Shown: positions 17,095 to 40,859, counted from the stretch's first letter. The stretch: DNA of 64,000 bases from an uncultured Gemmatimonadota bacterium (GCA_951812955.1 OX638340.1:3616001-3680000), one strand, 5' to 3'. Notes: generated from the sequence alone by a model not told the origin. Program-made: numbers and translations.

Positions 17095-17120
17095 CGCCCG
17101 GTCCGCGGCGTCCGCTCGAA

Positions 17121-17936
17121 TCAGCGTCCGGCCAGGTCGTCTCCGAGGTCGGTTGCGTCCACTTTGCCTTTCTCCAGGCTCACGCCGACGACGAAGAGCT
17201 CGAGGTCATCGTCCGTATGGTTGTAGATTCCGTGAGCACTGCCCAGGTTATTCAGAATGGCGTCCCCGCGGACGACCTCCTCGGTCTCGCCGTCCACCGT
17301 GATCCGGCCCCGGCCGTTCATGATCATGTAGGCTTCGTCCACGATCTCGTGCCGGTGGTAGCCCACGGAAGTACCCGGCGGCAGTAGGATATGGCAGAGG
17401 TATTCGAAATTTGTCGTGAAATCCCGACTTCCCCATACCTCCCGGAAAAGCACTTCGCCCTTTCCACCGTGATGCCGCCGGGGCTTCAGTAAGGCGCGGT
17501 TGAACCGTCCCACGGGCAATCGATCAGCGGACTCCAGCTTGACCTCTATGCGCGGGTCGTCGAAATCCTCGCACATCGGGGTGCGGGTGGGGTCCACACA
17601 GTGGAAGTTGAAGAACCAGGTATCCTGGTCCGAGTGGTTGTAGATGCCGTGGGATTCACCCGAGCGGAGGGGCACCGCCGCGCCGCCGTCGACTTCGGTC
17701 GTGCGGCCGTTGTGGGTGAACTGCATGGCGTTGTCGATGGTGACGAAGATCTCTTCCGAGTGGATGTGCGTGTGTTGCCCGATGCCGCTGCCGGGCGGGA
17801 AGATGACAGAGTGGATGAACGACCAGGGAGACTTGAACGCCGTCGCATCGAACCCCGGGTTGAAATAGCTCGCCGCGGCGCCGCCGTGGCTGACGCCCAA
17901 TCTCATCTCTTCGCGCCTTGTATGGGTTATCCGCAT
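17121..17936 (-). CDS. Bicupin protein
   Basis: Two cupin metal motifs are present: GIGQHTHIHSEEIFVTIDN and SVGYHRHEIVDEAYMIMNGRG. Confidence 0.6.
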   Translation of the reverse strand: MRITHTRREEMRLGVSHGGAAASYFNPGFDATAFKSPWSFIHSVIFPPGSGIGQHTHIHSEEIFVTIDNAMQFTHNGRTTEVDGGAAVPLRSGESHGIYNHSDQDTWFFNFHCVDPTRTPMCEDFDDPRIEVKLESADRLPVGRFNRALLKPRRHHGGKGEVLFREVWGSRDFTTNFEYLCHILLPPGTSVGYHRHEIVDEAYMIMNGRGRITVDGETEEVVRGDAILNNLGSAHGIYNHTDDDLELFVVGVSLEKGKVDATDLGDDLAGR

Positions 17937-17993
17937 GCGGACCGCTCCGGACTCCCCGACGATGGCATCATCCGGGGTGTATCTGTACCAAAG

Positions 17994-18794
17994 CTAAAGG
18001 GCGACTTCCTCGACAGGCTGCGTGCCGGTCTCGTAGGCGGGCCGCCACCGGTCGTGGGCCATGGACTCCTCCTCGCTGAGCCCGCACAGCCAGTTCCAGG
18101 TGTGGATGCGGCGTCTCAGGTCCCGGTAGGATTCCACTCCACTCGTGTATGGCGCGGCCGGCCGGTCGCGGTACACGGGGATTTCTTCCGAATCGATGAG
18201 CCAGTCGCGCTGCGGCGGTGCATTGCGGAAGTAGGAGAATTTGATCATGCTGCGGGGCTTGTGATTGAGCTTCGGGCCCGCCCGGTGCCAGATGCCGTAC
18301 CGGGTGATGGCCACGGTGCCGGCCTTCACTACGAGCGAAAGCTGGCCCGTGAGATCGCCGTAGTGGGCGAGGGCGTCGCGGTTGACCGCCCGGCAGTGGG
18401 AACCGGGCAGGATCATGGTCGGCCCGTCTTCGATCCCCACGTCCTGCGGATAATAGTAGCACTGGAGTTCGTTGATCTCGTAACCCTGGCCGGAAATGCC
18501 GTCCGAATGCCAGTCCTGACCCGCGACGGGCTCGTTTATGAGGTGGTGATGGCCGCCCGTCGGCATCAGGAAGTTGGCACCGAGCAGCGAACGTATCACG
18601 CCTGCCAGCCGCGGATGGAGCAGGACTTCGCGGACGAAATCCGGTGAACCGACCAGTTCCTTCGCGCGGCCGACCTTGACGTTGCGGCACTGCGCGTTGA
18701 AACCGGGATCCACCATTTCTTCAAGCACCGCGTAACCCTTCGCCACGAAATCCATCACGTCGTCGTCGGTCATTGTCGGTCTGATCTCCGCCAT
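17994..18794 (-). CDS. PhyH-family dioxygenase (paralog 3)
   Basis: It has QDWHSDG (HxD), DVGIEDGPTMILPGSH and a distal GIWHRAG. Confidence 0.75.
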   Translation of the reverse strand: MAEIRPTMTDDDVMDFVAKGYAVLEEMVDPGFNAQCRNVKVGRAKELVGSPDFVREVLLHPRLAGVIRSLLGANFLMPTGGHHHLINEPVAGQDWHSDGISGQGYEINELQCYYYPQDVGIEDGPTMILPGSHCRAVNRDALAHYGDLTGQLSLVVKAGTVAITRYGIWHRAGPKLNHKPRSMIKFSYFRNAPPQRDWLIDSEEIPVYRDRPAAPYTSGVESYRDLRRRIHTWNWLCGLSEEESMAHDRWRPAYETGTQPVEEVAL

Positions 18795-18806
18795 CGCAGC
18801 GCCTCC

Positions 18807-19235: not shown

Positions 19236-19533
19236 GGCGTTCTGATTATCGATGTCAGGAGTACGAATGCTCCTGCAATGGTACAGAGGCTACCGGTACC
19301 GTGTCAAGCAGGAATGAACCGTCTTTTTTGAAGGTGGTTTCGGCATGGAAGCCGCTGGTCTTGACAGCGTCCGGCACGCCGCTTAAGTTGCCTTCTGACG
19401 GTCATCGAAATGCGATCATCCAGGTCATTCAGTTCATTCCGACCAGCTGAACAGCGTGCGCAATTCGGGCAGAAACTTCCGGTCCGTCGATTTCCCGTTA
19501 CCAATTTCGATTCTCAGTTTAAAGGTATTCTAT

Positions 19534-20283
19534 ATGTCCCACGCGCAACCCCTGAATGCCCAGCAGATCGCCTACTTCAAGCTAAACGGCTACCTGGTCC
19601 TGAAGAACGTTTTCGACGAGGGAACCCTGGAGGCATGGCGGCGGCAGATCTGGCGGGCGCTCGATGGCTGCCTCGAAGATCCCGCGACCTGGCCCAGGGA
19701 AACGAGCGGTCTAGACGGGTACGATTACGATCCGCCCGAATCGGCCCTTGTGCACCATCCACAGATGATGGCGATCATCGACCAGCTCAGCGGGGGAACT
19801 TTCGTCGCTGGCGACGGCATTCCGATCATTCGGTGGCCCGATCCAGGAAAGTCCTGGGAAATGCCCCAAACGGGACATATCGATGCCTACGGGGGACGCT
19901 GGCTGCCCTTCATGATCGGCGCGACGACCTACCTGTACGACGTGGAACCCGGCGGCGGAGCCTTGATCTACTGGCCGGGAAGCCACCACGCCGCTCACCG
20001 GTACTTTCTCGAGCATCCCTCGCATGTCGACGGCAGCTTCCTGGAGATCGAGGGGTTTTCGTGGGACGTGTTCTGCGACAACCCGGCCACCGGCGGCCAG
20101 GAGTTTACCGCGAAGGCCGGCGACGTGGTGCTCTGGCATGCCTACCTGACCCACAACGGATCGGAAAATACCAGTCATTCGCCGCGCTTCGCCCTCTTCG
20201 CACGCTGGAACCATGAGAAACACCTGGAGCAGTCCTTCAGATACGAGATCCCCGAGGATCTGTGGAAGTATTGGGCGGTGTGA
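19534..20283 (+). CDS. PhyH-family dioxygenase (paralog 4)
   Basis: It begins MSHAQPLNAQQIAYFKLNGYLVLKNVF. It has TGHIDAYG (HxD), GGGALIYWPGSH and a distal YLTHNGSEN. The ORF-track N-extension from 19456 looks non-coding. Confidence 0.75.
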   Translation: MSHAQPLNAQQIAYFKLNGYLVLKNVFDEGTLEAWRRQIWRALDGCLEDPATWPRETSGLDGYDYDPPESALVHHPQMMAIIDQLSGGTFVAGDGIPIIRWPDPGKSWEMPQTGHIDAYGGRWLPFMIGATTYLYDVEPGGGALIYWPGSHHAAHRYFLEHPSHVDGSFLEIEGFSWDVFCDNPATGGQEFTAKAGDVVLWHAYLTHNGSENTSHSPRFALFARWNHEKHLEQSFRYEIPEDLWKYWAV

Positions 20284-20452: not shown

Positions 20453-20863
20453 ATGAGCTCAGTACCGGAACCGGATCAAGAGGAAGATCTTATGGGGAAA
20501 ATCATGAATGATTCCGCGAGCGTATCCGTTTTCGAGGTCGTTGGCAACGCTCTTTGCGTTGCTTCCGACGACGGCCAGAGAGTACACGACCGACTTTCGA
20601 CTGCATTGAAGGATAGCCGCCATGTGAATCTTTCTTTTCGCAACGTGACATCGCTTACTTCGGCTTTTCTGAACACCGCGGTCGGCCAATTGTATGGAAC
20701 CTTCAGCGAAGATCATATACGTACGCAGTTGAACATCGAAGAAATGTCCCTGGATGATCTGGTGTTACTCGAGCGTGTGGTCGACACAGCGAAGCAATAC
20801 TTCAAAGACCCTCAAAGATTCGAACAAGCGCTTCGTGAGGAAATGGATGACTATGACGACTGA
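20453..20863 (+). CDS. STAS-like domain protein (DUF4325-type)
   Basis: The pattern GQRVHDRLSTALKDSRHVNLSFRNVTSLTSAFLNTAVGQLYG matches what I recall for DUF4325 (x-V-x-LDF-x-GV...SSF). It has an acidic C-terminus. Confidence 0.5.
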   Translation: MSSVPEPDQEEDLMGKIMNDSASVSVFEVVGNALCVASDDGQRVHDRLSTALKDSRHVNLSFRNVTSLTSAFLNTAVGQLYGTFSEDHIRTQLNIEEMSLDDLVLLERVVDTAKQYFKDPQRFEQALREEMDDYDD

Positions 20864-21395
20864 TTCCAAGGCGCTCGCGGTGAATGAACACGAATTCAGT
20901 CGTAGAGATAGGTTGTTTCTTGATACTAATATCTGGTTGTATCTATTCGGTCCGCATAAACCCAAGGCAAGAGCGATCGACACGTATTCAAGTGTGCTTA
21001 AGCGGATTCTGGATGCGGGTAGCAGAATCTATATCGACGTTCTGATCGTTTCAGAGTTCATCAACGCATGCGCCAGGTTGAATTGGCATCTTGCAACAAA
21101 CAGGAAAATTGGTTTCAAAGCATTTCGAAATTCGTCATCTTTCAAATCAGTCGCCAGGTCGGTGTCAAGCGACGCCGCGCGGGTTATGTCCCACTGCTTG
21201 CGTGTGGAAAGTGGATTCTCGGACATGGCCGCGACCGAATTGCTCAATGAATTTGTCACCGGAAAATGCGACTTCAACGATCAAGTTATCATAAGACTCT
21301 GTAAAAAAGAAGAACTAACCCTGATTACACACGACGCCGATTTCAAAGGCGCGGGGATTCCGATTTTGACAGCGAACCATCGTCTTCTGAACTAA
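20847..21395 (+). CDS. PIN-domain nuclease (VapC-like)
   Basis: It overlaps the upstream gene by 17 nt (or 11 nt if it starts at 20853). The acidic triad candidates are LFLDTNIWLYLF, VLIVSEFINA and LITHDADF. Confidence 0.65.
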   Translation: MTMTTDSKALAVNEHEFSRRDRLFLDTNIWLYLFGPHKPKARAIDTYSSVLKRILDAGSRIYIDVLIVSEFINACARLNWHLATNRKIGFKAFRNSSSFKSVARSVSSDAARVMSHCLRVESGFSDMAATELLNEFVTGKCDFNDQVIIRLCKKEELTLITHDADFKGAGIPILTANHRLLN

Positions 21396-21399: not shown

Positions 21400-22227
21400 A
21401 TGCCCGCCTACCCCCGCTACCTCACCAAAGCTCAATTGGAGCAGTTCTGGTCCGACGGCTACCTGGTTTTGAAAGGCACGCTGGATCAAGAAGTGGTAGA
21501 AAAAGCCCGCGAATTCCTGCTGGACCTGATCCCGCGGGACCTGGTCATCCCGGACCACTACCACGCGAACCACGGCCGGTTCAAGCCCCACCACCCCGAC
21601 GGGAATGGCAGCTTTTTTGAACCTGCGATGCTGCCCCTGATGCAGAACGAAGCACTTTACGGCGCTGCCGTGGATATACTGGAGACAGAATACATCCGGG
21701 TGTGGGACGGTTCGGCGGGGATAACGCTAAGAAACCGCGCCATGGAAGGACGGCTCCAGAACCTCCACCTCGACGCTGTACCGGGAGGGCCCGAAGACCT
21801 GAATGAGGGGTTCCTTCGCACGGGAATAGGTATCGGCGGATGTTATTACCTGAACAAGGTTGAAGGTGAGGGCGGCGGCATCCACGTGGTTCCCGGCGGG
21901 CCGAACCGGGTGAGGGATATCATGCTTAACGAACCGGACGGTCTGACGCGCAACAACGGCTGGGGTCATATCACCGATTTTTCGTCGTCCATGGAGGTAA
22001 CCGGTGATGCCGGCGATTTCGTGCTGATGCATCACCTGATGCCCCACTCGGCCAGCGCCAATCACAACGCCGCGCCACGGATCGCCCAGTTCACCCGTCT
22101 GCAGGCCCTGACGGACGATGACGCCCGCCTCGCTCCGGGTCCCGACCGACCCCTGGACCCCGCAGCGCTTGGCGCCCTGACACCCCTGGGACGCAAACTG
22201 TTCCGCCTGGCCCCGTGGATCGGGTAA
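21400..22227 (+). CDS. PhyH-family dioxygenase (paralog 5)
   Basis: It has LTKAQLEQFWSDGYLVLKG, NLHLDAV (HxD), GGGIHVVPGG and a distal LMPHSASAN. Confidence 0.7.
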   Translation: MPAYPRYLTKAQLEQFWSDGYLVLKGTLDQEVVEKAREFLLDLIPRDLVIPDHYHANHGRFKPHHPDGNGSFFEPAMLPLMQNEALYGAAVDILETEYIRVWDGSAGITLRNRAMEGRLQNLHLDAVPGGPEDLNEGFLRTGIGIGGCYYLNKVEGEGGGIHVVPGGPNRVRDIMLNEPDGLTRNNGWGHITDFSSSMEVTGDAGDFVLMHHLMPHSASANHNAAPRIAQFTRLQALTDDDARLAPGPDRPLDPAALGALTPLGRKLFRLAPWIG

Positions 22228-22242
22228 TTTGTAGTTCCGCAA

Positions 22243-24216
22243 TTGGAACGGACGTACTCCATGTCCTCTGAACCTCCCCGGTCCCGTGGCCCTTCGGCCA
22301 TATCCCTGCGGGCCGGGATCATCGGGCTCGCGCTCTCCGCCGTGGTGGCTTTCTGGGGCCAGTTCGCCGCCGATCACGCCGGTTACAACTATACCACCTA
22401 CGCCCATATCCCCTCGGCGCTGCTGATCCCCTTCCTGATCCTGATCCTGGGTCCCCACGTCCTGCTCAAGAGGCTGGCGCCCGGGTACGCCCTGACGACT
22501 TCCGAGCTGATCGTGATTTTCGTCATGGGCCTGATCGGTTCGATGGTGCCCGACTGGGGCATGACGAGATACCTGGTCTCCCTCATCACGGGGCCCTTCT
22601 ACCATGCGAGTCCCGAGAACCGCTGGGCGGAGACTTTTTTCGAGACCTTGCCCGGGTGGCTCGTGATCAGCGGCAAGACGGACGCGGTACGGGTTTTCTA
22701 CGAAGGCGCCGCGCCGGGTTACCGGATCCCGTGGATGGCCTGGATCTCGCCCCTGCTGTGGTGGATGTCGTGTTTCGCCGCCCTGATGTGGACGGGCGCA
22801 TGCATCGTGGTCATCCTGCGAAAGCAATGGGTCAGCCACGAAAGGCTGCGCTTTCCCCTGGGGGAGGTATCGCTCAACCTGATGGGCGTGGCGAAGGACC
22901 CGAACGAGCCGCCCATGGTCCGCACGACTGCCTTTCGTATCGGCGCCGGCCTGTCGCTGGCCGTCGTGTGCTGGAACATCGCCTCCTACTGGGACATCGT
23001 TACCCCTATCCCCATCATGGGGCCGGACCTGCTGTATCTGAAGGTCCATCCGTCGATACCGGATCTTCCCATCCGGCTGAATGTCTTCGTACTGTGTTTC
23101 GCTTTCTTCATAAACGCCGAGATCCTGTTCAGCCTGTGTTTCTTCCTGCTCTTCACCACGCTGCAGCGGGGGCTGATGAACATGCTCGGGATCACGGCGG
23201 CCACGACCATGTCTCCTACCGGGCTCGTGGGCACCCAGTCCATCGGTGCCCTGATCGCCCTGGTGGTGTGGGGATTGTGGATGGCCCGTCGTCACCTGGC
23301 CGGTGTGGCCCGGCGGGCGTTTCGAAAGGATCCGTCGATCGATGACAGCAGTGAGTTCTTCTCGTACCGGGTGGCGGTTTTCGGATTGATCTTCGGCATG
23401 CTCTACCTGCTGGCATGGCTTTACAGCATCGGCATGTCGCTGCCCGTCAGCCTTGTCCTCCTGGCCGTACTCTTCATCGTCTACATCGGAATGGCCCGGA
23501 TCGTTGCGGAGGCGGGTCTGGTCGCCATGGACCTGCCGGTAACAGCCAACAACTTCACCGGGGGCATTATCGGCGCCGACAACCTGGACCCGTCCTCGAT
23601 CACCGCTATGGGCATGACGAACGCCTTCGCCCGGAACTGGCGGACCTTTACGATGATCGGGCTGTCTCACGCCGCCTACCTGCAGCGCTGGATGGGGCCG
23701 TCCACCCGGCACCTCTTCCTCTGGATCTGCCTGGCCTTCGCCGTCAGTGTCGTAACTTCCCTCTACTACTACATCAGCGCGGGTTATGCAGTCGGCGCCG
23801 ATAATCTGCTGTCCAAGCCCGGCGACCTCGTACCCTTCTTCTACAACACGATCATGACGTGGAACAGCAGCGCAAGCAGTGTCTCGGAACTGGAACTGAT
23901 CTTCTTCGGGAACGGTATCGTCCTGTACATGCTGATGATCCTCGGACGCTTCATGTTTCTCTGGTGGCCGCTGCATCCCATCGGCCTGGTCGCCGTGGCC
24001 GCGGACACCGTGCGGTTCATGTTCCTACCCTTCCTGCTGGCCTGGCTCGTCCAGGTAATCCTGCTGCGCCTGGGTGGAGGAGCCCTTTACCGCAGAGCGC
24101 AGCCCCTGTTTCTCGGCATCCTGGTTGGATATGTCCTTGGGATGGCCCTCTCATTCCTGGTGGACAGCCTGTGGTTTCCGGCCGCACCGCACCAGTTCGA
24201 ATCCTTTATCAACTGA
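22243..24216 (+). CDS. Large polytopic membrane protein of uncharacterised family (paralog A), candidate transporter
   Basis: It is 657 aa with many hydrophobic segments throughout. It shares blocks with 28259-30250: RKQWVSHERLRFPL, WWPLHPIGL and LLRLGGGALYRRAQP. From memory it may be DUF6785/DUF6784-type; not verified. Confidence 0.7.
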   Translation: MERTYSMSSEPPRSRGPSAISLRAGIIGLALSAVVAFWGQFAADHAGYNYTTYAHIPSALLIPFLILILGPHVLLKRLAPGYALTTSELIVIFVMGLIGSMVPDWGMTRYLVSLITGPFYHASPENRWAETFFETLPGWLVISGKTDAVRVFYEGAAPGYRIPWMAWISPLLWWMSCFAALMWTGACIVVILRKQWVSHERLRFPLGEVSLNLMGVAKDPNEPPMVRTTAFRIGAGLSLAVVCWNIASYWDIVTPIPIMGPDLLYLKVHPSIPDLPIRLNVFVLCFAFFINAEILFSLCFFLLFTTLQRGLMNMLGITAATTMSPTGLVGTQSIGALIALVVWGLWMARRHLAGVARRAFRKDPSIDDSSEFFSYRVAVFGLIFGMLYLLAWLYSIGMSLPVSLVLLAVLFIVYIGMARIVAEAGLVAMDLPVTANNFTGGIIGADNLDPSSITAMGMTNAFARNWRTFTMIGLSHAAYLQRWMGPSTRHLFLWICLAFAVSVVTSLYYYISAGYAVGADNLLSKPGDLVPFFYNTIMTWNSSASSVSELELIFFGNGIVLYMLMILGRFMFLWWPLHPIGLVAVAADTVRFMFLPFLLAWLVQVILLRLGGGALYRRAQPLFLGILVGYVLGMALSFLVDSLWFPAAPHQFESFIN

Positions 24217-24310
24217 GTACTACCCTCATAAACTCACCAGAACACAGGATCGCGGAACCGTAAATGAAGCCCTGATATCGAAACCGTAAAAGAACGTCTG
24301 ACGAAAGTTC

Positions 24311-24368
24311 GCAATCATCCGAAACGGAAGCGAGACGCAATCATCCGAAACGGAAGCGAGACGCAACC
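24311..24368 (+). repeat. Perfect 26-nt tandem duplication (2 full copies plus a partial third) forming the 5' leader of the sulfatase gene
   Basis: gcaatcatccgaaacggaagcgagac occurs at 24311-24336 and 24337-24362. A third partial copy, gcaaCcatgg, contains the ATG at 24369. Confidence 0.9.
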
Positions 24369-25733
24369 ATGGCCACGAAATCCGGACGCCCCAATCTCCT
24401 GTTTATCATGGACGACCAGCACCGGCACGACTACCTGTCCGCGGCGGGAGCGACCTTCGTGCGCACGCCGAACCTGGACTGTTTGGCGGAACGCGGGGTC
24501 CGATTCAGCCAGTGCATAACCAACGCCCCGGTCTGCGCGCCCGCGCGCATCGGCCTGGCCAGCGGCTACCAGCCCGCGCGGCTGGGGTGCCTGGACAACA
24601 ACTGCTACCTGCCCCGCCATATCACGCCCTATTACGTCCGGCTTCGGGACGCGGGATACCGGGTCGGGTGCGTGGGGAAACTCGACCTGGCCAAGCCGGA
24701 TCCCTACAACGGCCGCCACGGCGACCGAGCCCGGGTGTTCGGTTGGGGTTTCACCCATCCCGTGGAATGCGAAGGCAAGATGCACGCGGGCATGGCGGAC
24801 CAGCCGCGGGGACCTTATGGATTCTGGCTTCAGGAGCAGGGACTCTTCGAACGCTTCCGGACGGATTACGCGGCCCGGGGAGCGCGGGGCTGGATCGAGG
24901 GTGCTTCCCATGATTCTATATTGCCTGAGGACGCTTTCGAGGATGCCTACATTGGCCGCCGCGCCGTGGAATGGATGGACACCGTCCCCGACGATTACCC
25001 GTGGCATCTCTTCGTCAGCTTCGTGGGGCCGCACGATCCCTTCGATCCGCCTACGTCATACGCGGAACGATACCGGGGCGCTGCCGTGCCGCCGGCAATA
25101 CGAAGCAACGAAGAGGGGAAGCCGTCCTGGGTCAACGCCCGTCGGCGCGACCTGTCCGAAGATGAAGTGGCAGTTACGCGCCGGCAGTATTGCGCGGTCA
25201 TCGAACTGATCGACGACCAGGTAGGCCGGATCATCGAAGCCGTAGAACGGCGGGGCATGGCGGAGGATACCATCGTCGTGTTCGCCAGCGACCACGGCGA
25301 AATGCTGGGCGACCATGGCCTGTACACCAAATCCGTTCCCTACGAGGTGGCCCTGCGCGTGCCGCTCATTGCCGCTGGACCAGGCATAGCGGGAGGGCGT
25401 ACTTCCGACGCCCTCGTGGAACTGATCGACGTCAATCCGACCCTGTGCGGTCTGGCGGGTCTGCCCGCCCAGGAAGGGCTCGACGCCAGCGACTTCAGCG
25501 CCGTGCTCACCGGGGATCGTTCGACCCACCGCGAGGAAGCGGCCAGCGCGCTTCGCGAATTCCGGCTCGTACGCACGGCGGATCACAAGCTTGTGGTGCA
25601 CCACACGGGTGAAACGGAGCTATACGACCTGAAAAACGATCCTGAAGAGCTTGAAAACGTGGCGGCCGATCGGCCCGATGCGGTCAACGCGCTGCGAAGG
25701 CGTCTGCAGCGGCGATTTCACTTCCCGCCCTAA
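24369..25733 (+). CDS. Formylglycine-dependent sulfatase, no signal peptide
   Basis: It has PNLLFIMDDQHRHD and the CxPxR signature VCAPARIGLASG. The catalytic domain begins at about residue 8. Confidence 0.85.
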   Translation: MATKSGRPNLLFIMDDQHRHDYLSAAGATFVRTPNLDCLAERGVRFSQCITNAPVCAPARIGLASGYQPARLGCLDNNCYLPRHITPYYVRLRDAGYRVGCVGKLDLAKPDPYNGRHGDRARVFGWGFTHPVECEGKMHAGMADQPRGPYGFWLQEQGLFERFRTDYAARGARGWIEGASHDSILPEDAFEDAYIGRRAVEWMDTVPDDYPWHLFVSFVGPHDPFDPPTSYAERYRGAAVPPAIRSNEEGKPSWVNARRRDLSEDEVAVTRRQYCAVIELIDDQVGRIIEAVERRGMAEDTIVVFASDHGEMLGDHGLYTKSVPYEVALRVPLIAAGPGIAGGRTSDALVELIDVNPTLCGLAGLPAQEGLDASDFSAVLTGDRSTHREEAASALREFRLVRTADHKLVVHHTGETELYDLKNDPEELENVAADRPDAVNALRRRLQRRFHFPP

Positions 25734-25787
25734 CGCCGGCGATTTCACTTCCCGCCGTGACCCTCCGTGACCATGCCGGACATGCCG

Positions 25788-26624
25788 TCAAGACCGGCCG
25801 TAAGGCGCGCCATCGGGCGAGGCATGTTGCGGTGAGACGATCTGGCGTCGTTCGGGCGTAAGACGGTCCAGCAGTTCGGGCGAGGGCTGGTACCCGTGGC
25901 GGAAATTGCCCCAGGAAGGTCCGTACCGGTAGACCACGATACGGCGCGTTCCCGCGTTTCGCCGGGTGGCCGAACCGTGGGAGATGCCATCCACGAACAA
26001 CAGGGCGTCGCCGGCCTCCATAAACAGTTCCGCGGAACCGGTAATGCCCTCCACGGAAGCGCCCTTGGGCTTCATGGCGTGCCGGGCGAATTCTGGGTGG
26101 ATGAAGTTGGATTTGTGACTGCCCGGGATGACCATGGTGGCGCCGTCCCCGGGACCGATGTCGGTCAGGGCCATGAGCACATTGACCTGCCCGCACATGA
26201 ACCGGCCGCCGTGGTAGCGGAAGCCGTTGCGCATGATGGGCGGGTATCCCCCGGAATGCAGCCCGATCGCCTCTCCCGGCTCCCGGAAATTTGCGAAGTT
26301 CTCGTCGATGAACAGCGGGCCGTGTGCGTAGTCGAAGGTACCCTCCCCGCCCACGAAATGCTTGACCCGGTCGAACCACGAAGGATGGTCGATCAGGGCT
26401 TCGAACGGGGCGCCCGCTTCGTAAATCTGCTGGAGGTTCAGGCCGTCCACGGTGCCGTAGGTATGGGCGTTGACGAATCCGTGCCATTCGCCCGGCGACA
26501 GGGCCGGGAATTCGTCCAGGGAGGCGTTCAGTTCCGCCACTTCCGCCCTCGACAGGGCCTGCTTCAGATGGAGGAATCCGTTCAGGTCGAAGAGATAGAC
26601 ATCCAGGTCGTCAAGATTGCTCAT
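25788..26624 (-). CDS. PhyH-family protein (paralog 6) with H-S-G in place of the HxD iron ligands
   Basis: The start is ATG 26624 (MSNLDDLDVYLFDLNGFLHLK). It has GLHSGGY (codons at 26250-26258), ALTDIGPGDGATMVIPGSH and a distal DGISHGSATR. Confidence 0.65.
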   Translation of the reverse strand: MSNLDDLDVYLFDLNGFLHLKQALSRAEVAELNASLDEFPALSPGEWHGFVNAHTYGTVDGLNLQQIYEAGAPFEALIDHPSWFDRVKHFVGGEGTFDYAHGPLFIDENFANFREPGEAIGLHSGGYPPIMRNGFRYHGGRFMCGQVNVLMALTDIGPGDGATMVIPGSHKSNFIHPEFARHAMKPKGASVEGITGSAELFMEAGDALLFVDGISHGSATRRNAGTRRIVVYRYGPSWGNFRHGYQPSPELLDRLTPERRQIVSPQHASPDGAPYGRS

Positions 26625-26808
26625 GGGATTGTACCGTTTCTCCAGGGAAATCCTGTTGATTTGTCCCGCCCGATTCGTTACTCTCTTGATCGGCAATATA
26701 TCTCGCCAACCAGCGATACACAACCCAATTGCACTGGGAACCGCGCGAGACGCCGGCCGGATCCATTCCATCCCGAAATATCCGCGTAGACAGGACGAGG
26801 TAACCTGA

Positions 26809-28182
26809 ATGAAGGCCGTTTCACAGCCCAACGTGCTGATTGTGCTGAGTGATCAACTGCGGCGGCAGGCCCTGTCCACCTACGGCGATCCGAACATCGT
26901 CACGCCTCACGTCGACGACCTGGCCGGCCGGGGTGTTCGATTCGAGAACGCCAGTTCTACCTGTCCCATCTGCGTCCCTTTCCGTTTCACTTTCATGACG
27001 GGGCTGTACGCCCATGACCGGAAGGTACCTGGTATCGAGTACAGGATGTCTCCCGCGGAACGCACCCTGGCCGACGAGTTCAACGAGGCGGGGTACGAAA
27101 CGATCTATACGGGCAAATGGCATCTCGACGGAGGTCACGGCCGCATGGGGTCCGCCCGGCAGTGCGGGCGGATGCCCGTGAAGAAGGCCTACCGGGGCCG
27201 CTGGCAGAAGTGGATGGGTTTCGAACTCAGAAACGGCCCCTTCGATACCTTTTATTTCGAAGACGACGACCCGACGCCAAAACCGGTAGAAGGATACCAG
27301 ACCGACGGGCTTTTCGAGCTCGCCATGGACTACCTCGAGACCCGGGATCCGTCCCGTCCCTTCTGCATGGTGGTTTCCGTCGAGCCGCCCCACGATCCTT
27401 TCGAGGCCCCGGAGGCGATGCAGCGCACCTGGGAGGCGATGGACATCGTGCTTCCGCCCAACGTCGACGCGGCCGACGCCGAGGCCATGGAACGGATCAT
27501 GCTCAACCGGAAGCGGTATTACGCCATGGTGGAAAACCTGGACTGGAACATGGGGCGCCTCGGCGCATTTCTGCTGCGAACCGGCCTCCACGGCGAGACC
27601 GTGGTCGTGTTTCTTTCGGATCACGGAGAACTCGGCGGCGCCCATGGACTCCGGGGAAAGCAGTGGCCTTACGAGGAGTCGACGGGAATCCCCCTGATCG
27701 TGGCGGATCCACGGCACCCGGACCGGGCCGGTGCCTTGATCGAAGATCCGGTCTCCACCGAGGACCTGTTCCCCACCATACTCGGTCTGGCCGGGCTGCG
27801 ACCACGGGACGCCCTTCCCGGCGAAAACCTTGCACCGTTGATACACGGCAACACCGGACGGCTGGAGCGGGAAGGCGTGATGCTCGAGTTCGTGGCTGAA
27901 CTGCGTCAGGGCATGGCCTTCTACGACCAGGTCTGGCGTGGGTACCGATCCGCTCGGTACAAGTATACCGTGTGCGGGGACAACCTCGGCGGCGCCGGGC
28001 CGTGGCAGTTCTTCGATCTGGCGGAGGATCCCTGGGAACAGCGAAATCTCATTGACGATCCCGCTTTCCGGCCGGAGATCACGCGTCACCATGGCCTTCT
28101 CCTGGACAGGATGAAGGAGACCGACGACCACTTCGTACTCCTACCCGCCTTCGGAATGGAAGGATTGAATACCTGGGATTGA
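26809..28182 (+). CDS. Formylglycine-dependent sulfatase, no signal peptide
   Basis: It has PNVLIVLSDQLRR and the CxPxR signature CVPFRFTFMTG. The domain starts at about residue 7. Confidence 0.85.
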   Translation: MKAVSQPNVLIVLSDQLRRQALSTYGDPNIVTPHVDDLAGRGVRFENASSTCPICVPFRFTFMTGLYAHDRKVPGIEYRMSPAERTLADEFNEAGYETIYTGKWHLDGGHGRMGSARQCGRMPVKKAYRGRWQKWMGFELRNGPFDTFYFEDDDPTPKPVEGYQTDGLFELAMDYLETRDPSRPFCMVVSVEPPHDPFEAPEAMQRTWEAMDIVLPPNVDAADAEAMERIMLNRKRYYAMVENLDWNMGRLGAFLLRTGLHGETVVVFLSDHGELGGAHGLRGKQWPYEESTGIPLIVADPRHPDRAGALIEDPVSTEDLFPTILGLAGLRPRDALPGENLAPLIHGNTGRLEREGVMLEFVAELRQGMAFYDQVWRGYRSARYKYTVCGDNLGGAGPWQFFDLAEDPWEQRNLIDDPAFRPEITRHHGLLLDRMKETDDHFVLLPAFGMEGLNTWD

Positions 28183-28258
28183 ACCCCGCGATCCTCGCTA
28201 AGCACCGCACAGGATCCGTCGGCGGCTGTGTCTGAATCCAGAGGAAATCGAAGCATAC

Positions 28259-30250
28259 ATGTCCCAAACCAGCGAGACGACGCCACAGACCGGCGAAACC
28301 GGAAGCGGTGGCGCGGCTAAAACACTGACGACCGGTCTCACCCGCAGGGCCCTGCTGATCGGCATCTTTCTGTCTGTCCTGCTGAACATCTGGACGATTC
28401 ACGCGGGCTACATCAGCCAGTCGTCGTTCATCAGCCTGACCCACCTGCCCGTTTCCGCCCTGTTCCCCTTCCTGCTGGTGCTGCTGGGGCTCAATCCGCT
28501 GTTGAAAGTCTTCTGGCCGTCCAGGGTACTGCACCGCAATGAACTGATAATCGTGTTCTTCCTGGTCTTTACCGCGTCGACCATTCCCGCGTGGCCCTTC
28601 AGTTCCTACTGGATCAGCGGTATCACGGGGCCGTACTATAACGCCACCACGGAGAACCAGTGGGCGGAGCTCTTCTTCCAGTATCTGCCCTCCTGGCTGA
28701 TCGTCCAGGACGAGCAGCGCGCCCTCTCGTGGTTTTTCGAAGGCATCCCTGACAGCCGCCCCCCGGTCTTCGGCATCATTCGCAATGCCTGGACCGTACC
28801 GATGTTCTGGTGGGTCACCTTCTTCCTCGCCATCTTCGTGGTCGGCGCGTCGGCCATGGTCATGCTTCGCAAACAGTGGGTGGAACACGAGCGGCTGTCC
28901 TTCCCGCTCGCCCAGATTCCGCTGATCCTGGTCGAAGAGGAGAAGGGCCGCGCGTTGCCCGCCGTGATGCAATCGAAGCTGTTCTGGTACGCTTTCGGCA
29001 TCACGTTGTTTATTTTCCTCTGGAACATCGTCGGTTTCTTCAACTGGGTCAGCGCCATCCCCATTGGGCCGCTGCACAACTTCCCCGTTGTGATCGCCCG
29101 GGCGTTTCCCGCTATTCCCGTCAAGTTCAATTTCCTGGTTGCGGGCGTTGGATACTTCACGAACCTGAACGTCCTTTTCAGCATATGGGTGTTCTTCGTC
29201 ATCATGACCATTCAGCAGGGCATCATGACCCGCCTCGGCGTGCCCAATGCCTTCGCGGTCGTCAAGTCGCAGCATTCCGGCGGGTTTCTCGTGTTTGCTC
29301 TGTACGCTTTGTGGGCGGCGCGGCGGCACCTGAAGGACGTCGTGATGAAAGCACTGGGCAAGGCGCCCCACGTGGATGATTCGAAGGAGTTCTTTTCCTA
29401 CCGGATGGCCGCGCTGGGCGTCCTGGGTGGCGTTACCTACATCGTGTGCTGGCTTTATGCCACGGGCATGTCCCTCGGAATCATCGCCTTCATGATGGGG
29501 TCGTTGCTGATCATGTTCGTGGGCGTGACGCGCATCGTGGCGGAAACGGGCATCGTGTTCCTTGACCTGCCCTTCGAGACCCACGACTTCACGGTGGCCG
29601 TCATCGGTTCGGGGAGTATCAGTACGCGGGATCTGACAAACCTCGCCATAGCCAATTCCTACGCCCGCAACTGGCGGACGCTCGGCATGTGTTCCATGGG
29701 GCATATCGCCAAGGTCGACGACGAGATGGGCGGTACGGGTAAAGGATCCTTCAAGACGATCACGGCCGTTCTCGCCCTGAGTATAGTCGTGTCGTTGATA
29801 TTCACGATTTACCTGGGATATAACCACGGAGGGGCTTCGCAGTTCTTCGAGCCTGCGTTCACCAACGGGACCAAGCTACCTTACGACAACCTGGTCAAAT
29901 GGATCAATAACAGGGAGGCGATCACCGGGACCGAGTTCTGGTTCATGGTCTTCGGAGGTGTGATTACCACACTGCTGATCCAGGCTCACCACCGGTTCAC
30001 CTGGTGGTCGCTGCACCCCATCGGATTCACCGTTGTGCTGACGCCGGGCATGGCCAGTTCGGCTTTCTCGCTGTTTGTGGTCTGGTGCGTGAAGGCCCTG
30101 CTCCTGAAGATCGGGGGCATCCAGCTGTACAGAAAGGCCGTACCCGCTGTCATGGGCATGCTCGTTGCGTTCGTACTTGGCGTGTTTCTTTCGTACGTGG
30201 CCGACGTCGCCTGGTTTCCCAGGGCAGGCCATCCCGTTCAGAACTGGTAA
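28259..30250 (+). CDS. Large polytopic membrane protein of uncharacterised family (paralog B)
   Basis: It is 663 aa and collinear with 22243-24216. Shared blocks are RKQWVEHERLSFPL, WWSLHPIGF and LLKIGGIQLYRKAVP. Confidence 0.7.
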   Translation: MSQTSETTPQTGETGSGGAAKTLTTGLTRRALLIGIFLSVLLNIWTIHAGYISQSSFISLTHLPVSALFPFLLVLLGLNPLLKVFWPSRVLHRNELIIVFFLVFTASTIPAWPFSSYWISGITGPYYNATTENQWAELFFQYLPSWLIVQDEQRALSWFFEGIPDSRPPVFGIIRNAWTVPMFWWVTFFLAIFVVGASAMVMLRKQWVEHERLSFPLAQIPLILVEEEKGRALPAVMQSKLFWYAFGITLFIFLWNIVGFFNWVSAIPIGPLHNFPVVIARAFPAIPVKFNFLVAGVGYFTNLNVLFSIWVFFVIMTIQQGIMTRLGVPNAFAVVKSQHSGGFLVFALYALWAARRHLKDVVMKALGKAPHVDDSKEFFSYRMAALGVLGGVTYIVCWLYATGMSLGIIAFMMGSLLIMFVGVTRIVAETGIVFLDLPFETHDFTVAVIGSGSISTRDLTNLAIANSYARNWRTLGMCSMGHIAKVDDEMGGTGKGSFKTITAVLALSIVVSLIFTIYLGYNHGGASQFFEPAFTNGTKLPYDNLVKWINNREAITGTEFWFMVFGGVITTLLIQAHHRFTWWSLHPIGFTVVLTPGMASSAFSLFVVWCVKALLLKIGGIQLYRKAVPAVMGMLVAFVLGVFLSYVADVAWFPRAGHPVQNW

Positions 30251-30283
30251 TCTTGCTGCGTCCTGCTGATCTCCAGCAGGCGC

Positions 30284-30688
30284 GTGGGAGCGTTGAAAAT
30301 GTCGGAAGAACAGGATCCCCAGGAAATACTCGACCGCATCCTGGAAAACGACGGCCGATATCCCAGGAGGGCCTACCTCTTCGTCCTTGAGGCGGTTTCG
30401 TATACGGTGGAGAAACTGTCAGAACGCAGGCACATATCGGGGAAGGAACTTTCCATGGGCATCAGGGATCTCGCCCTCGAAAGGTTCGGCATCGCGGCGA
30501 AACTGGTGTTCGAAGAGTGGAACCTCACCAGAACCCGTCACTTCGGCGACATCGTCTTCAATCTGGTCAACGAGGGGTTACTGCGGAAAACCGAAGAGGA
30601 CGACATCGAGGATTTCGACGAGGTGTTCGACTTCACCACCGCGTTCGAAACCGAGTTCCGGATCACCGTGGAATCGAAGGACGGCTGA
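30284..30688 (+). CDS. Small conserved hypothetical, resembles the Minf_1886 family (Planctomycetes/Verrucomicrobia-type)
   Basis: The blocks YPRRAYLFVLEAVSYTV...RHISGKELSMGIRDLALERFG...FGDIVFNLVNEGLLRKTEEDDIEDF match my recollection of that family. ATG 30299 is an alternative start. Confidence 0.4.
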   Translation: MGALKMSEEQDPQEILDRILENDGRYPRRAYLFVLEAVSYTVEKLSERRHISGKELSMGIRDLALERFGIAAKLVFEEWNLTRTRHFGDIVFNLVNEGLLRKTEEDDIEDFDEVFDFTTAFETEFRITVESKDG

Positions 30689-30797
30689 TCACCGTTCCCC
30701 ATGGTGTTGTTTCGGTCTGCTTCGGCATCATCCCCCGGGCCTGAATTAGATGGGGCCTTCAGGCCTCAGCGGAATCCCTGACGCCAGATCTTTGGCC

Positions 30798-33845: not shown

Positions 33846-35618
33846 CTAATGACCGAATGCAGCGCCCTCGATCCGGGGGTCCGGCGCACCCAGGCGATAG
33901 CCTGTGTCGGGGTCCACCATGATACTGTGGCCGTCACCCTGGCGGTAGGATCCACCGCCGAATCCGCGGCTGCTGAGCTCATGGCCCTTGGCCTGCAGTG
34001 CGTCCGCTGTCTCGCGCCCCACTCCGCCTTCCAACCGAAGGAAGTCCGGAAACCACTGGTGGTGTACACGCGGCGCGTCGACCGCTTCCTGGATGTTCAT
34101 GCCGTGATCGACGACATTCAGGATCAGCTGCATAGTCGTATTTATGATAGTGCGTCCTCCGGGGCTGCCCACGACCAGGTACAGATCGCCGTTACGCGTA
34201 ACGATGGTCGGCGACATCGAACTCAGCATACGCTTGTTCGGTTCGATGATATTCGGCGGCGTGCCGATCTGTCCGGTGGTTCTCGTGATCCCCGGCTGAG
34301 GATTGAAATCGCCCATCTCATTATTCGTGATCATGCCCGTTCCCGCGATGACGATGTGGGAGCCGTACCCGCCTTCGAGCGTGTAGGTGTTCGATACGCC
34401 GTTACCCCACTGGTCGACAACGGAGTAGTGCGTGGTCTGGTCGCTCTCGCTCGGCATCGTCAAATCGGGTCCCAGTTCTTCGCTGGGCGTGGCGAAGAAG
34501 GGATCGATCGTGGACCGGAGCTCTGCCGCGTACTCCTTCGTCGTTAAGTGTTCCGGTATCTCGACGAAGTCCGCGTCTCCAAGGTGCCGGGCACGGTCGG
34601 CGTAAGCCCGGCGCATCGCTTCGGCCATGATATGTAGTGTATTGGAGGAGTTATGGCCCATCCGGCCCAGGTCGTAACCTTCAAGCATGTTGAGCATAAG
34701 CGACATGGTGATGCCGCCGGAGCTCGGAGGGGGCATGGAAATGATCTCGTATTCCCCCCGATACTTGTTTCTAACGGGTTCCCGAATGATCGCCTGGTAG
34801 TTCGCCAGGTCGGTCCGGTCGATCATCCCTCCCCCGGCTTTCATATCCTTTTCAATCAATTCGGCGGTCACACCCTTGTAGAATCCGTCGTGGCCGTCCC
34901 GGGCGATGTGCTTCAGGGTTTCCGCCAGGTCTTTCTGAACCCACCGGTCGCCTGCCTGCCAGGCCTCGCCGTCGCTCCGGAGCATGGCCGCCTTGCTAGC
35001 CGGGATCTGATTGAATATGACCGTTCGGCTGTTCAATCCCCGGGCGATGCGCTCTGTCAGAATGAACCCGTTTTCGGCGAGATCGATGGCGGGCTGGATG
35101 ACTTCCGCCATGGACATGGTGCCGTATTTCTCCAGGGCCAGGGCGAATCCGGCCACTGTACCCGGCACGCCGATGGCCAGGTGGTGTATGCGGTTGGTCG
35201 GAGGATGGTAGGTTGAACCGTCGCGGCGGGTGAGGGTGATGTTCGGGTTCACCGCGCGGTTGCCGTCTTCATCCAGGTACATCCGGGCATGGGCCTTGCC
35301 CGGCGCTTTCTCGCGGTAGTCGACCGCCACGGCCGTTCCGTCGGCCATGCGTATGATCATGAACCCGCCGCCGCCGATGTTGCCGGCGGATGGGTGGGTC
35401 ACCGCCAGGGCCAGTCCGAGCCCCACGGCGGCGTCTACGGCGTTACCGCCCTTCTTCAGGATGTCCGCGGCGATCTGTGTGGCCAGAGGTTCCACCGCGA
35501 CCGCCATGCCTTTCTTGCCGACGACCGGCTTGCGGGACGCCGCATTGGCATCATAGATCGATAAGGCCGAGATAAACAGGCCGCATATTGCGACCAGGAT
35601 TGTCAGGCGATGCTTCAT
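33846..35618 (-). CDS. ggt: Gamma-glutamyltranspeptidase, secreted
   Basis: The start at ATG 35618 gives the signal peptide MKHRLTILVAICGLFISALSIYDANA. It has PSAGNIGGGGFM and the autoprocessing site DQTTHYSVVD. Confidence 0.9.
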   Translation of the reverse strand: MKHRLTILVAICGLFISALSIYDANAASRKPVVGKKGMAVAVEPLATQIAADILKKGGNAVDAAVGLGLALAVTHPSAGNIGGGGFMIIRMADGTAVAVDYREKAPGKAHARMYLDEDGNRAVNPNITLTRRDGSTYHPPTNRIHHLAIGVPGTVAGFALALEKYGTMSMAEVIQPAIDLAENGFILTERIARGLNSRTVIFNQIPASKAAMLRSDGEAWQAGDRWVQKDLAETLKHIARDGHDGFYKGVTAELIEKDMKAGGGMIDRTDLANYQAIIREPVRNKYRGEYEIISMPPPSSGGITMSLMLNMLEGYDLGRMGHNSSNTLHIMAEAMRRAYADRARHLGDADFVEIPEHLTTKEYAAELRSTIDPFFATPSEELGPDLTMPSESDQTTHYSVVDQWGNGVSNTYTLEGGYGSHIVIAGTGMITNNEMGDFNPQPGITRTTGQIGTPPNIIEPNKRMLSSMSPTIVTRNGDLYLVVGSPGGRTIINTTMQLILNVVDHGMNIQEAVDAPRVHHQWFPDFLRLEGGVGRETADALQAKGHELSSRGFGGGSYRQGDGHSIMVDPDTGYRLGAPDPRIEGAAFGH

Positions 35619-40680: not shown

Positions 40681-40859
40681 TGGGCTGACAGATTATGGAG
40701 TAATAGAAATCATTCTGTATTGCCTTGATGTGTTTTTTGTCACCTTCGGGCGATTGTGCGTTATATTCCGGATTGTATTCGTTCCTTCGACCCCTTACAA
40801 GCCCAAAAACAGCGCCAATGCGCGACCAAATACGCGCTGCGCGCTGCGGAGAACTGCCC

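Follow-up and report, generated by a model that had tools for sequence, protein, structure and literature searches.

Genes and features of the locus

The locus lies in a window of 64,000 nucleotides, the whole stretch of DNA that was analysed, from an uncultured marine bacterium whose closest named relatives carry a Latescibacterota label. The window contains 56 genes, and its remainder was annotated by Pfam scans, which recovered a NAGLU-like GH89 and a BNR protein elsewhere in it. The six open reading frames that a first-pass annotation had proposed (in order: PhyH, membrane protein, sulfatase, PhyH on the minus strand, sulfatase and membrane protein) were all recovered by ORF calling and Pfam, and are listed together with the neighbouring features in Table 1.

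Table 1. Genes and sequence features of the locus; positions are counted from the first nucleotide of the window.
Feature	Position	Strand	Description
PhyH1	21400..22227	+	Weak PhyH-family Fe(II)/2OG oxygenase, canonical H-L-D motif
Mem1	22261..24216	+	DUF6785+DUF6784 polytopic membrane protein, putative OPT-fold importer
26-nt perfect tandem duplication	24310..24361		Mem1-Sulf1 spacer
Sulf1	24369..25733	+	Leaderless Cys-type S1 sulfatase; CAPAR, DDQ, SDHGE
25-nt tandem repeat	25710..25761		Across the Sulf1 stop codon
PhyH2	25788..26624	-	HygX-like Fe(II)/2OG oxygenase
Sulf2	26809..28182	+	Leaderless Cys-type S1 sulfatase; CVPFR, SDQ, SDHGE
Mem2	28259..30250	+	DUF6785+DUF6784 membrane protein; predicted OPT/YSL fold, putative proton-coupled importer
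Minf_1886-family small protein (TIGR04138)	30299..30688	+	NCBIfam E 2e-39
Terminator-like hairpin	30690-30706		3' of the Minf_1886-family gene

Mem1 is read from the ATG at 22261, which yields 651 aa, the length also called in a near-identical contig (L001); the other candidate start is a TTG at 22243, and the distance between the end of PhyH1 and Mem1 amounts to 15-33 nt. The two pairs of membrane protein and sulfatase are each co-directional and operon-like in layout, with gaps of 152 nt (Mem1-Sulf1) and 76 nt (Sulf2-Mem2), and PhyH2 is transcribed divergently from Sulf2. L001 differs from the window by an indel in the Mem1-Sulf1 spacer. The gene of the Minf_1886 family is co-oriented with Mem2, starts 48 nt downstream of it and follows Mem2 in L001 and in two related loci (L082, L083) as well; the single-sequence AF2 model of its product was unusable (pLDDT 50.8). 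A scan for promoters and terminators gave counts at the level of shuffled sequence, except for the hairpin at the end of the locus. Neither Rfam nor tRNA scanning gave any hit in the window, so that these scans supplied no taxonomic marker.

The membrane proteins share the predicted fold of OPT/YSL transporters

Mem1 and Mem2 both contain, in N-to-C order, the Pfam domains DUF6785 (E 7e-107, 358.5 bits and E 2e-108, 363.8 bits, respectively; cut-off 25 bits) and DUF6784 (E 2e-17, 63.8 bits and E 7e-18, 65.1 bits; cut-off 26.4 bits). They are 35% identical over their full length (E 3e-138), and the paralogy noted earlier is borne out by the blocks RKQWV(S/E)HERL(R/S)FPL, WW(P/S)LHPIG and LL(R/K)xGGxxLYR(R/K)A, all of which were found in both. 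Mem1 has 15 hydrophobic segments, and the membrane proteins have 15-17. The membrane-protein AF2 model is of high confidence, and the fold predicted for Mem1 and Mem2 is that of HvYS1, an OPT/YSL proton symporter with a core and a scaffold domain. The OPT family of Pfam (PF03169) did not match either protein even at E ≤ 10, a search against NCBIfam gave no link to OPT, and a profile built from 66 homologues found nothing among the PDB sequences at E ≤ 10, so that the fold comparison is the sole source of the OPT link. The guess of the first-pass annotation that these proteins belong to DUF6785/DUF6784, and not to the MFS, ABC, SSS or TRAP transporters, agrees with both Pfam and the predicted fold.

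The designation of Mem1 and Mem2 as transporters is solid. Judged by fold, they are remote bacterial relatives of the proton-coupled, elevator-type secondary importers of the OPT/Yellow-Stripe class; transport would probably be inward and coupled to protons. With the OPT/YSL transporters (TC 2.A.67; barley HvYS1, PDB 7WSR/7WST) they have the fold in common, but no detectable sequence similarity: the identity in the structural alignments is 10-15%, the domains form a separate Pfam pair, and the genomic partners of the family are cytoplasmic catabolic enzymes rather than enzymes of peptide or metal-chelate metabolism.

DUF6785/DUF6784 is a general family of putative importers. A profile search of 1.84 billion representatives recovered 8415 clusters at 50% identity. 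The family is distributed in uncultured marine and sediment bacteria whose records are labelled Latescibacterota, Gemmatimonadota or Zixibacteria, and it is multi-copy, each genome carrying several paralogs or more. The neighbours of the DUF6785 genes include: MR_MLE, GFO/IDH/MocA and SDR proteins, xylose-isomerase-like TIM barrels, luciferase-like monooxygenases, GGT and M32 peptidases. Given this size, the multiple copies and the mostly unrelated enzymes encoded nearby, the description of Mem1 and Mem2 as 'dedicated' importers of sulfatase substrates is not supported. Our literature search on DUF6785/DUF6784 found no paper, and the annotation encountered was only DUF or hypothetical.

The sulfatases are cytoplasmic

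Both sulfatases match PF00884 (Sulf1, E 6e-39; Sulf2, E 2e-47) and carry the metal-site motifs together with the expected CxPxR signature, at residue 56 in Sulf1 (CAPAR) and at residue 55 in Sulf2 (CVPFR), and each adjoins a membrane protein gene as had been described. They are 28% identical to each other (E 4e-36). The NCBIfam models for arylsulfatase (PRK13759; 262 bits for Sulf1 and 207 for Sulf2, cut-off 481) and choline-sulfatase (TIGR03417; 230 and 182 bits, cut-off 433) matched below their cut-offs, and the best PDB matches were 6fny for Sulf1 (E 1e-47) and YidJ, 2qzu, for Sulf2 (E 2e-41). Judged by these comparisons, the two are nearest to choline-sulfatase and YidJ-type enzymes.

The reported lack of an export signal was confirmed for both proteins. 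An in-frame TGA abuts the ATG of Sulf2, and in Sulf1 an in-frame stop occurs 32 codons upstream, the stretch between being highly charged and free of ATG, GTG and TTG; these stops rule out an N-terminal extension and with it a missed signal peptide. Among the full-length sulfatases of the first 80 related loci, the catalytic domain begins within ~10-15 residues of the start of the ORF in nearly all cases; the exceptions are a few long ORFs, and every sulfatase that neighbours a DUF6785 gene lacks a leader. Since the sulfatases are cytoplasmic, their substrate must be imported. In line with the earlier remark that the window contains no maturase, the Pfam scans found no FGE (PF03781) or anSME gene among the window ORFs that they covered, nor did Pfam and motif scans combined find one in the window or the fetched loci: a crude motif scan across the ORFs of the window and of the ~160 related loci detected no pair of FGE-like motifs, and no ORF >250 aa with CxxxCxxC occurred in the window.

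The PhyH genes are found near the pairs at chance level

PhyH1 scores 29.8 bits against PF05721 (cut-off 22), has the H-L-D triad and has no sequence relative in the PDB. PhyH2 scores 71.8 bits (E 1e-19) and displays a variant iron triad, H-S-G ... D-x3-H; its best match among the PDB sequences is HygX (4xc9, E 2e-13), with the D/E-x3-H region covered by the alignment. The motif of HygX is H-x-G...E-x3-H (PMC13374393), and the variant H-x-G ... (D/E)-x3-H is common to PhyH2 and the HygX-type orthosomycin orthoester synthases. PhyH2 differs from HygX in having Asp for Glu, the alignment spans ~100 residues, and the context is catabolic instead of an antibiotic gene cluster. No pairwise similarity between PhyH1 and PhyH2 was detectable.

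PhyH genes make up 13 of the 56 genes in the window, and upon shuffling of the gene order a PhyH gene fell within two genes of both membrane protein genes with P=0.44. In the de-duplicated set of related loci (see below), PhyH was found near DUF6785 in 5/95 cases against 24/435 in the background, i.e. without enrichment. A PhyH gene does lie near each pair, as had been claimed; PhyH2, however, sits between the two sulfatases and not on the outer flank, and the proposed tie of PhyH to the module does not rise above chance. L082 and L083 both retain the PhyH1-Mem1 pair. That the PhyH genes belong to the unit could not be demonstrated, and we rejected PhyH as an obligatory member of it.

Conservation of the transporter-sulfatase adjacency

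The only two sulfatases of the window flank its only two DUF6785 genes, an arrangement that gene-order shuffling of the 56 genes yielded with P=0.004. The Sulf2>Mem2 pair is conserved in three relatives (L002, L082 and L083), in which Sulf2 is 74-91% identical, so that its conservation extends to relatives as low as 74-76% in identity. Sulf1 is missing from L083, a relative that is otherwise collinear (76-80% identical), and no sulfatase lies within 8 kb of a Mem2 relative at 62% identity. Adjacency to a sulfatase, in the order SULF>MEM or MEM/SULF, was also found in other clades (group B: L017, L018, L020, L026, L027, L070, L104 and L105; and further L043 and L045, L085, L095 and L112), with sulfatases that are not orthologous: those located beside different family members are 25-32% identical. 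Most members of the family have no sulfatase nearby.

Counted over all related loci, which are not independent of each other, a sulfatase was adjacent in 19/317 cases versus 31/1370 (OR 2.75, p=0.001), and the highest value of the raw positional profile is found at distance 1 (6.0% versus 2.3%). After the ~160 related loci were collapsed to 59 groups at ≥ 60% identity, the figures became 3/95 versus 7/435 (OR 2.0, p=0.26), where the background is formed by the same loci and not by whole genomes, and the gene calls of the related loci are homology-guided approximations. The first-pass annotation had made its reading depend on a statistical association with sulfatases in other genomes; de-duplication brings that part close to refutation, and what stands is the recurrence of the adjacency in a few clades.

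Proposed function and alternative explanations

In the mechanism that we propose, the DUF6785 family would have expanded into many paralogs within the Latescibacterota-labelled group, each of them next to its own, distinct set of cytoplasmic catabolic enzymes. At this locus, two such importers would have been paired, independently, with leaderless Cys-type S1 sulfatases, a different one for each: Mem1 and Mem2 would each take up a small organic solute that bears a sulfate, the neighbouring formylglycine sulfatase would strip the sulfate from it in the cytoplasm, and the desulfated product would serve as a source of carbon or nitrogen for the oxidative and hydrolytic catabolism around it. We give this reading an even chance of being correct; both the sulfated nature of the substrate and the functional coupling of transporter and sulfatase are inferred, and the coupling is plausible for this locus only. 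A role in sulfur scavenging is unlikely, because the related contigs appear, by their names, to be marine-metagenomic.

The locus had been described as a mirror, that is inverted, duplication of a three-gene module of PhyH, transporter and sulfatase, to which the order of the genes (Mem-Sulf followed by Sulf-Mem, with one PhyH near each pair) lends some appeal. Both pairs nevertheless lie on the plus strand, so that only the order is swapped, and the two halves contain no DNA repeat, the matches between them being at most 25-33-nt motifs. The two membrane proteins belong to different clades, Mem2 being 48-53% identical to relatives elsewhere against 35% to Mem1; Sulf1 and Sulf2 share 28% identity, yet each has relatives elsewhere at 31-32%, and the two PhyH proteins show no detectable resemblance. 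As neither the membrane proteins nor the sulfatases are mutual closest relatives, the claim of a duplicated module fails; phylogenetic placement rules out the inverted duplication, and we attach hardly any credence to it. Just as improbable is a function of the membrane proteins outside transport, for instance as glycosyltransferases, polymerases or flippases: nothing was found in favour of it in a family annotated only as DUF or hypothetical, and it was rejected after testing.

A more serious objection holds that the genes are coincidental neighbours in a catabolic island, in which DUF6785 proteins import non-sulfated solutes (peptides, sugar acids, amino-acid derivatives) and adjacency carries no meaning. 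Sulfatases constitute ~2-3% and PhyH ~4-25% of the genes in these loci, the de-duplicated enrichment is not significant for sulfatases and nil for PhyH, the neighbours are very diverse across the family, Sulf1 is dispensable in L083, and the adjacent sulfatases are non-orthologous. Against this stand the placement of both sulfatases beside both DUF6785 genes of the window, with its low probability under shuffling, the co-directional, operon-like spacing, the raw peak at distance 1, the recurrence of the adjacency in different gene orders and several clades, and the need of cytoplasmic sulfatases for some importer; on balance we hold coincidence to be possible but doubtful. It is unlikely that Sulf1 and Sulf2 are formylglycine-dependent enzymes of the phosphonate monoester hydrolase or PehA type, within the alkaline-phosphatase superfamily, that hydrolyse esters other than sulfates, with transporters that import organophosphorus or other anionic esters. 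They do match the NCBIfam model PehA ('phosphoric/sulfuric ester hydrolase') with 171 and 147 bits and the phosphonate monoester hydrolases 2w8s, 2vqr and 4upk in the PDB (E 1e-24 to 1e-31), enzymes of that kind are also cytoplasmic, and in group A the C/SxPxR motif is absent from the neighbours with a sulfatase fold. The PehA scores, however, remain far under the 900-bit cut-off, the matches to arylsulfatase and choline-sulfatase (262 and 230 bits) and to 6fny and YidJ are better, and CxPxR together with SDHGE agrees with bona fide S1 sulfatases.

Extending the import of sulfated solutes beyond this locus, we tentatively suggest, as a possibility that we would not favour at present, that DUF6785/DUF6784 represents an unrecognised and very large branch of the OPT superfamily in bacteria, through which Latescibacterota-like marine heterotrophs would import most of their organic solutes. 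Several of its subclades, among them Mem1, Mem2 and the 'SULF>MEM<PhyH-HEAT' group, might have specialised in sulfated metabolites of small size, whose desulfation, and perhaps oxidation by Fe/2OG oxygenases, would take place wholly in the cytoplasm. If true, sulfated dissolved organic matter would here follow another route than in the extracellular paradigm of the PUL type.

Significance and comparison with known systems

The analysis provides a testable function, that of an OPT-fold secondary importer, for a DUF family that comprises thousands of sequence clusters. It also shows the many sulfatases of these uncultured marine and sponge-associated lineages, which the literature usually takes for polysaccharide-degrading exoenzymes, to be cytoplasmic; the molecules on which a cytoplasmic sulfatase acts must be small, sulfated and imported. 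Sulf2-Mem2 would, if the pairing holds, offer a compact two-gene system to find the sulfated compounds that these bacteria consume.

Polysaccharide utilization loci (PULs) of Bacteroidota and Planctomycetota likewise cluster S1 sulfatases with uptake genes. Unlike in the PULs with secreted or periplasmic sulfatases, the cluster described here has no signal peptide, SusC/D, TonB receptor or glycoside hydrolase. Cytoplasmic sulfatases combined with an importer are known from Pseudomonas aeruginosa (AtsA with the ABC system AtsRBC), Sinorhizobium meliloti (the choline-sulfatase BetC with choline-sulfate uptake) and Escherichia coli (yidJ-yidK, with a transporter of the SSS type); our literature search on such import systems found nothing useful. 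As in these systems, the gene of a leaderless S1 sulfatase lies beside that of an inner-membrane importer. The present locus differs from them in that the predicted transporter fold is OPT and not ABC or SSS, and in that the cluster includes neither a regulator nor a maturase; compared with BetC and the arylsulfatases, Sulf1 and Sulf2 stay under the equivalog cut-offs. The principle that a compound is first imported and then desulfated is already known from AtsA/AtsRBC, BetC and YidJK, and the novelty lies in the class of the transporter, which makes the advance an incremental one.

Gene content of the locus

The first-pass annotation had proposed a mirror-duplicated module for import and desulfation, built from two PhyH-family oxygenases (PhyH1, PhyH2), two membrane proteins (Mem1, Mem2) and two sulfatases (Sulf1, Sulf2). 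All six open reading frames are present (see table), the Mem-Sulf pairs in an operon-like layout. The guess that the membrane proteins are of the DUF6785/DUF6784 type was exactly right (both Pfam domains in both proteins), and the peptide blocks reported as shared between them were all recovered, like the CAPAR and CVPFR signatures of the sulfatases. Pairwise comparison gave 35% identity end to end for Mem1 and Mem2 (E 3e-138) and 28% for Sulf1 and Sulf2 (E 4e-36). The probable start of Mem1 is the ATG at 22261, yielding 651 aa and matching the gene call in the near-identical contig L001. The Minf_1886-family gene directly 3' of Mem2 is kept in L001 and in the related loci L082 and L083, and L037 has a homologue (cluster c119) downstream of a DUF6785 gene, two genes away. 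No rRNA or tRNA gene was found in the window, so its taxonomic placement follows the labels given to related MAGs.

Features of the window (PF matches from Pfam; window coordinates)
Feature	Position	Strand	Match or remark
Low-GC island	2000-6000		GC 0.50 vs ~0.61; includes ORFs without Pfam match
N6/N4 DNA methylase	3986-5122		within the island
592-aa protein	10814-12592	-	SAM-methyltransferase domain, C-terminal HNH endonuclease motif
DUF4325 and PIN-domain genes	20453-21395		GC 0.53 vs ~0.61
PhyH1	21400-22227	+	PF05721, 29.8 bits
Mem1	22243-24216	+	DUF6785 E 7e-107, DUF6784 E 2e-17
Tandem duplication	24310-24361		26 nt, perfect
Sulf1	24369-25733	+	PF00884 E 6e-39
Tandem repeat	25710-25761		25 nt, across the Sulf1 stop codon
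PhyH2	25788-26624	-	PF05721, 71.8 bits
Sulf2	26809-28182	+	PF00884 E 2e-47
Mem2	28259-30250	+	DUF6785 E 2e-108, DUF6784 E 7e-18
Minf_1886-family small protein	30299-30688		TIGR04138, 'Plancto_Ver_chp'
GGT	33846-35702	-	four genes downstream of Mem2
BNR/sialidase-like protein	54788-55867	-	
TMEM164-family protein	58280-59224	-	E 4e-44
NAGLU-like protein, 934 aa	59249-62053		GH89 alpha-N-acetylglucosaminidase
Other PF05721 genes	12867-13670; 16216-17094(-); 17994-18794(-); 19456-20283; 40725-41711; 44911-45741; 47376-48209; 52947-53900(-); 53932-54720(-); 62196-63002; 63045-63839		

Fold and family of the membrane proteins

The literature searched held no mention of DUF6785 or DUF6784, NCBIfam has no model for these proteins, and the source annotations of the family read 'hypothetical' throughout. 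An AlphaFold2 model of Mem2, built on a 66-sequence alignment, reached a pLDDT of 90.6 and a pTM of 0.89, and a Foldseek search against the PDB returned only two significant matches, both to barley Yellow Stripe 1 (7wsr/7wst; E 3e-10, probability 1.00, TM 0.59-0.67; all other matches E>0.09). HvYS1, the solved representative of the oligopeptide/yellow-stripe transporters (OPT/YSL), is a symporter coupled to protons; its core/scaffold architecture is elevator-like, and when solved it was without structural homologues (PMC9691689). Pfam OPT (PF03169) did not match Mem1 or Mem2 at E≤10, nor did the family profile retrieve any PDB sequence at E≤10. By the predicted fold and this lack of a sequence-level link, we class Mem1 and Mem2 as OPT-fold transporters that form a sequence family of their own. 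That they transport at all is, on the modelled structure, highly probable, and the same match excludes a glycosyltransferase or polymerase, the identities that had been named as speaking against an importer.

Searching 1.84 billion representatives with the family profile recovered 8415 clusters at E≤1e-3 (3326 at E≤1e-30). The genome scan gave at least 581 loci, nearly all from MAGs whose labels read Latescibacterota, Gemmatimonadota, Zixibacteria or just 'bacterium'; single chromosomes carry several copies (OZ241838.1 at least five loci). In the 92% relative L002 the Mem1 orthologue (upstream of 6115) appears split into two ORFs, perhaps by a frameshift or an assembly error, or as a pseudogene.

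Origin of the two gene pairs

The mirror duplication did not hold: both Mem-Sulf pairs lie on the plus strand with their order alone swapped, so this is not an inverted duplication, and PhyH2 is located between Sulf1 and Sulf2 instead of on the outer flank. Between the two halves of the locus no DNA-level repeat was found beyond 25-33-nt matches at conserved motifs, and no pairwise similarity between PhyH1 and PhyH2 was detectable. A neighbour-joining tree built from 104 members of the family places Mem1 and Mem2 in different clades, Mem2 has relatives in other genomes at 48-53% identity (vs 35% to Mem1), and Sulf1 and Sulf2 each have relatives elsewhere at 31-32% (vs 28% to each other). The pairs were therefore assembled independently, or split extremely long ago.

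Cytoplasmic sulfatases

The claim that neither sulfatase carries an export signal was firmly borne out: the ATG of Sulf2 has an in-frame TGA immediately 5', and Sulf1 has an in-frame stop 32 codons upstream, the intervening stretch being highly charged and free of ATG, GTG and TTG, which rules out a missed signal peptide. The CxPxR, DDQ/SDQ and SDHGE motifs are all present in both enzymes; as noted before, no formylglycine maturase (FGE or anSME) was found in the window, neither among the ORFs scanned with Pfam nor by a crude motif scan. The best relatives are the choline-sulfatase BetC (6fny, E 1e-47), YidJ (2qzu, E 2e-41) and NCBIfam arylsulfatase/choline-sulfatase models, with scores well under the equivalog cut-offs, so that these matches assign no substrate; beside sulfatase activity, a phosphonate-monoester-hydrolase/PehA-type activity is a minor alternative for both. 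Among the first 80 related loci nearly all full-length sulfatases are leaderless (exceptions: a few long ORFs), and those adjoining DUF6785 genes are so without exception, so that desulfation in the cytoplasm looks characteristic of the whole lineage. The 'sulfatases' of group A are without C/SxPxR. In L005-L013 (~17100-18800), a sulfatase-fold protein encoded five genes downstream of each of the closest Mem2 relatives has no such motif in its first 200 residues and is probably not a formylglycine enzyme.

Genomic associations

The only two sulfatases of the window flank its only two DUF6785 genes (P=0.004, gene-order shuffling). The entire layout is kept in L082 (Mem2 81% identical); L083 (76-80% identical) keeps PhyH1-Mem1 and PhyH2/Sulf2-Mem2 and lacks Sulf1; a 52% relative has the order MEM> PhyH> <SULF and a 62% relative is sulfatase-free within 8 kb. 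The Sulf2-Mem2 pair is thus partly conserved. In other clades we found adjacent arrangements (SULF>MEM><PhyH-HEAT in group B, at least 9 loci; MEM><SULF in L043/45; SULF>MEM in L095 and L112) and sulfatases 2-3 genes from the membrane gene (group C, L100, L116, L129); sulfatases beside different family members are non-orthologous (25-32% identity). Tandem repeats bracket Sulf1, the indels that separate L001 from the window sit in precisely the two spacers that hold them, and L083 has a 61-nt gap (5482-5544) where the gene is missing, which suggests that Sulf1 was recently gained or lost.

Sulfatase adjacency was also counted across the family. Raw counts peaked at the adjacent position (19/317, 6.0%, vs 31/1370, 2.3%, at distances 2-9; OR 2.75, p=0.001) but are not independent because many loci are orthologous, and after collapsing to 59 groups (≥60% identity) they became 3/95 vs 7/435 (OR 2.0, p=0.26). 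PhyH adjacency was not enriched in these groups (5/95 vs 24/435). In 4/59 groups a family member had both a sulfatase and a PhyH gene no more than three genes away (0.85 expected; Fisher p=0.002), two of the four being the window's own overlapping neighbourhoods. Because the background came from these loci too, it may be enriched as well, which makes the comparison conservative but also imperfect; we read the data as suggestive, though not proof, of an association that is confined to certain clades and labile in evolution.

Neighbourhoods of 80 genome loci and about 80 metagenome loci (own homology-guided gene calls, clustered and Pfam-labelled) were highly diverse: GFO/IDH/MocA oxidoreductases, SDRs, MR_MLE (enolase superfamily), xylose-isomerase-like TIM barrels, luciferase-like monooxygenases, GGT, M32 carboxypeptidase, 2-hydroxyacid dehydrogenase, lactonase, GNAT, PhyH and sulfatases. 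Such diversity is the mark of importers with a general role, radiating together with catabolic enzymes of the cytoplasm, and not of the 'dedicated importers' proposed earlier. A gamma-glutamyltranspeptidase gene, also present in the window, directly precedes tandem DUF6785 genes (GGT> MEM> MEM>) in L044, L046, L051, L058 and L072 (~8000-12000). Some OPT-family members transport glutathione, and by analogy this clade may import gamma-glutamyl peptides.

PhyH genes do flank the pairs in part, which is uninformative here given their abundance (13/56 window genes by HMM labelling, ~23%) and the 44% of gene-order shuffles in which both membrane genes have one no more than two genes away. The 13 genes in 64 kb fall into several clusters that are dissimilar to one another; Poribacteria show a comparable massive expansion (PMC3909097). 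PhyH1 (canonical H-L-D) and Mem1 are separated by only 15-33 nt, a tight coupling that is kept in L082 and L083. The DUF4325/PIN genes directly upstream of PhyH1, a toxin-antitoxin-like pair, are kept in L082 and absent in L083. PhyH2, closest to HygX (E 2e-13), has H-S-G in place of HxD and, close to the second His, a D-x3-H motif. Such a variant triad is also reminiscent of halogenases. HygX, an orthoester synthase, likewise has H-x-G for HxD, with the carboxylate of the iron triad moved to (D/E)-x3-H (PMC13374393).

Elsewhere in the window, the low-GC island is possibly a mobile element or one of restriction-modification type. The NAGLU-like and BNR proteins are glycosaminoglycan-type glycan enzymes, and the window sulfatases carry SGSH_C domains. 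The strong TMEM164 match is to a family best known from eukaryotes.

Proposed function and known systems

Mem2 (and Mem1) would import a small sulfated organic solute in a proton-driven manner, Sulf2 (and Sulf1) would hydrolyse it in the cytoplasm in a formylglycine-dependent reaction, and the numerous oxygenases, amidases and dehydratases nearby would catabolise it onward. We consider the chances of such coupled import and desulfation at this locus about even. The names of the related contigs suggest a marine metagenomic origin; since sulfate is abundant in seawater, carbon or nitrogen acquisition is a more likely role than sulfur scavenging. In two established systems, AtsA/AtsRBC of P. aeruginosa and rhizobial BetC, the substrate is imported and then desulfated in the cytoplasm; the same is implied for E. 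coli yidJK. The locus would follow the same, already known logic, but with a different transporter class, and it is this class, an uncharacterised DUF pair with a predicted OPT fold, that is new here.
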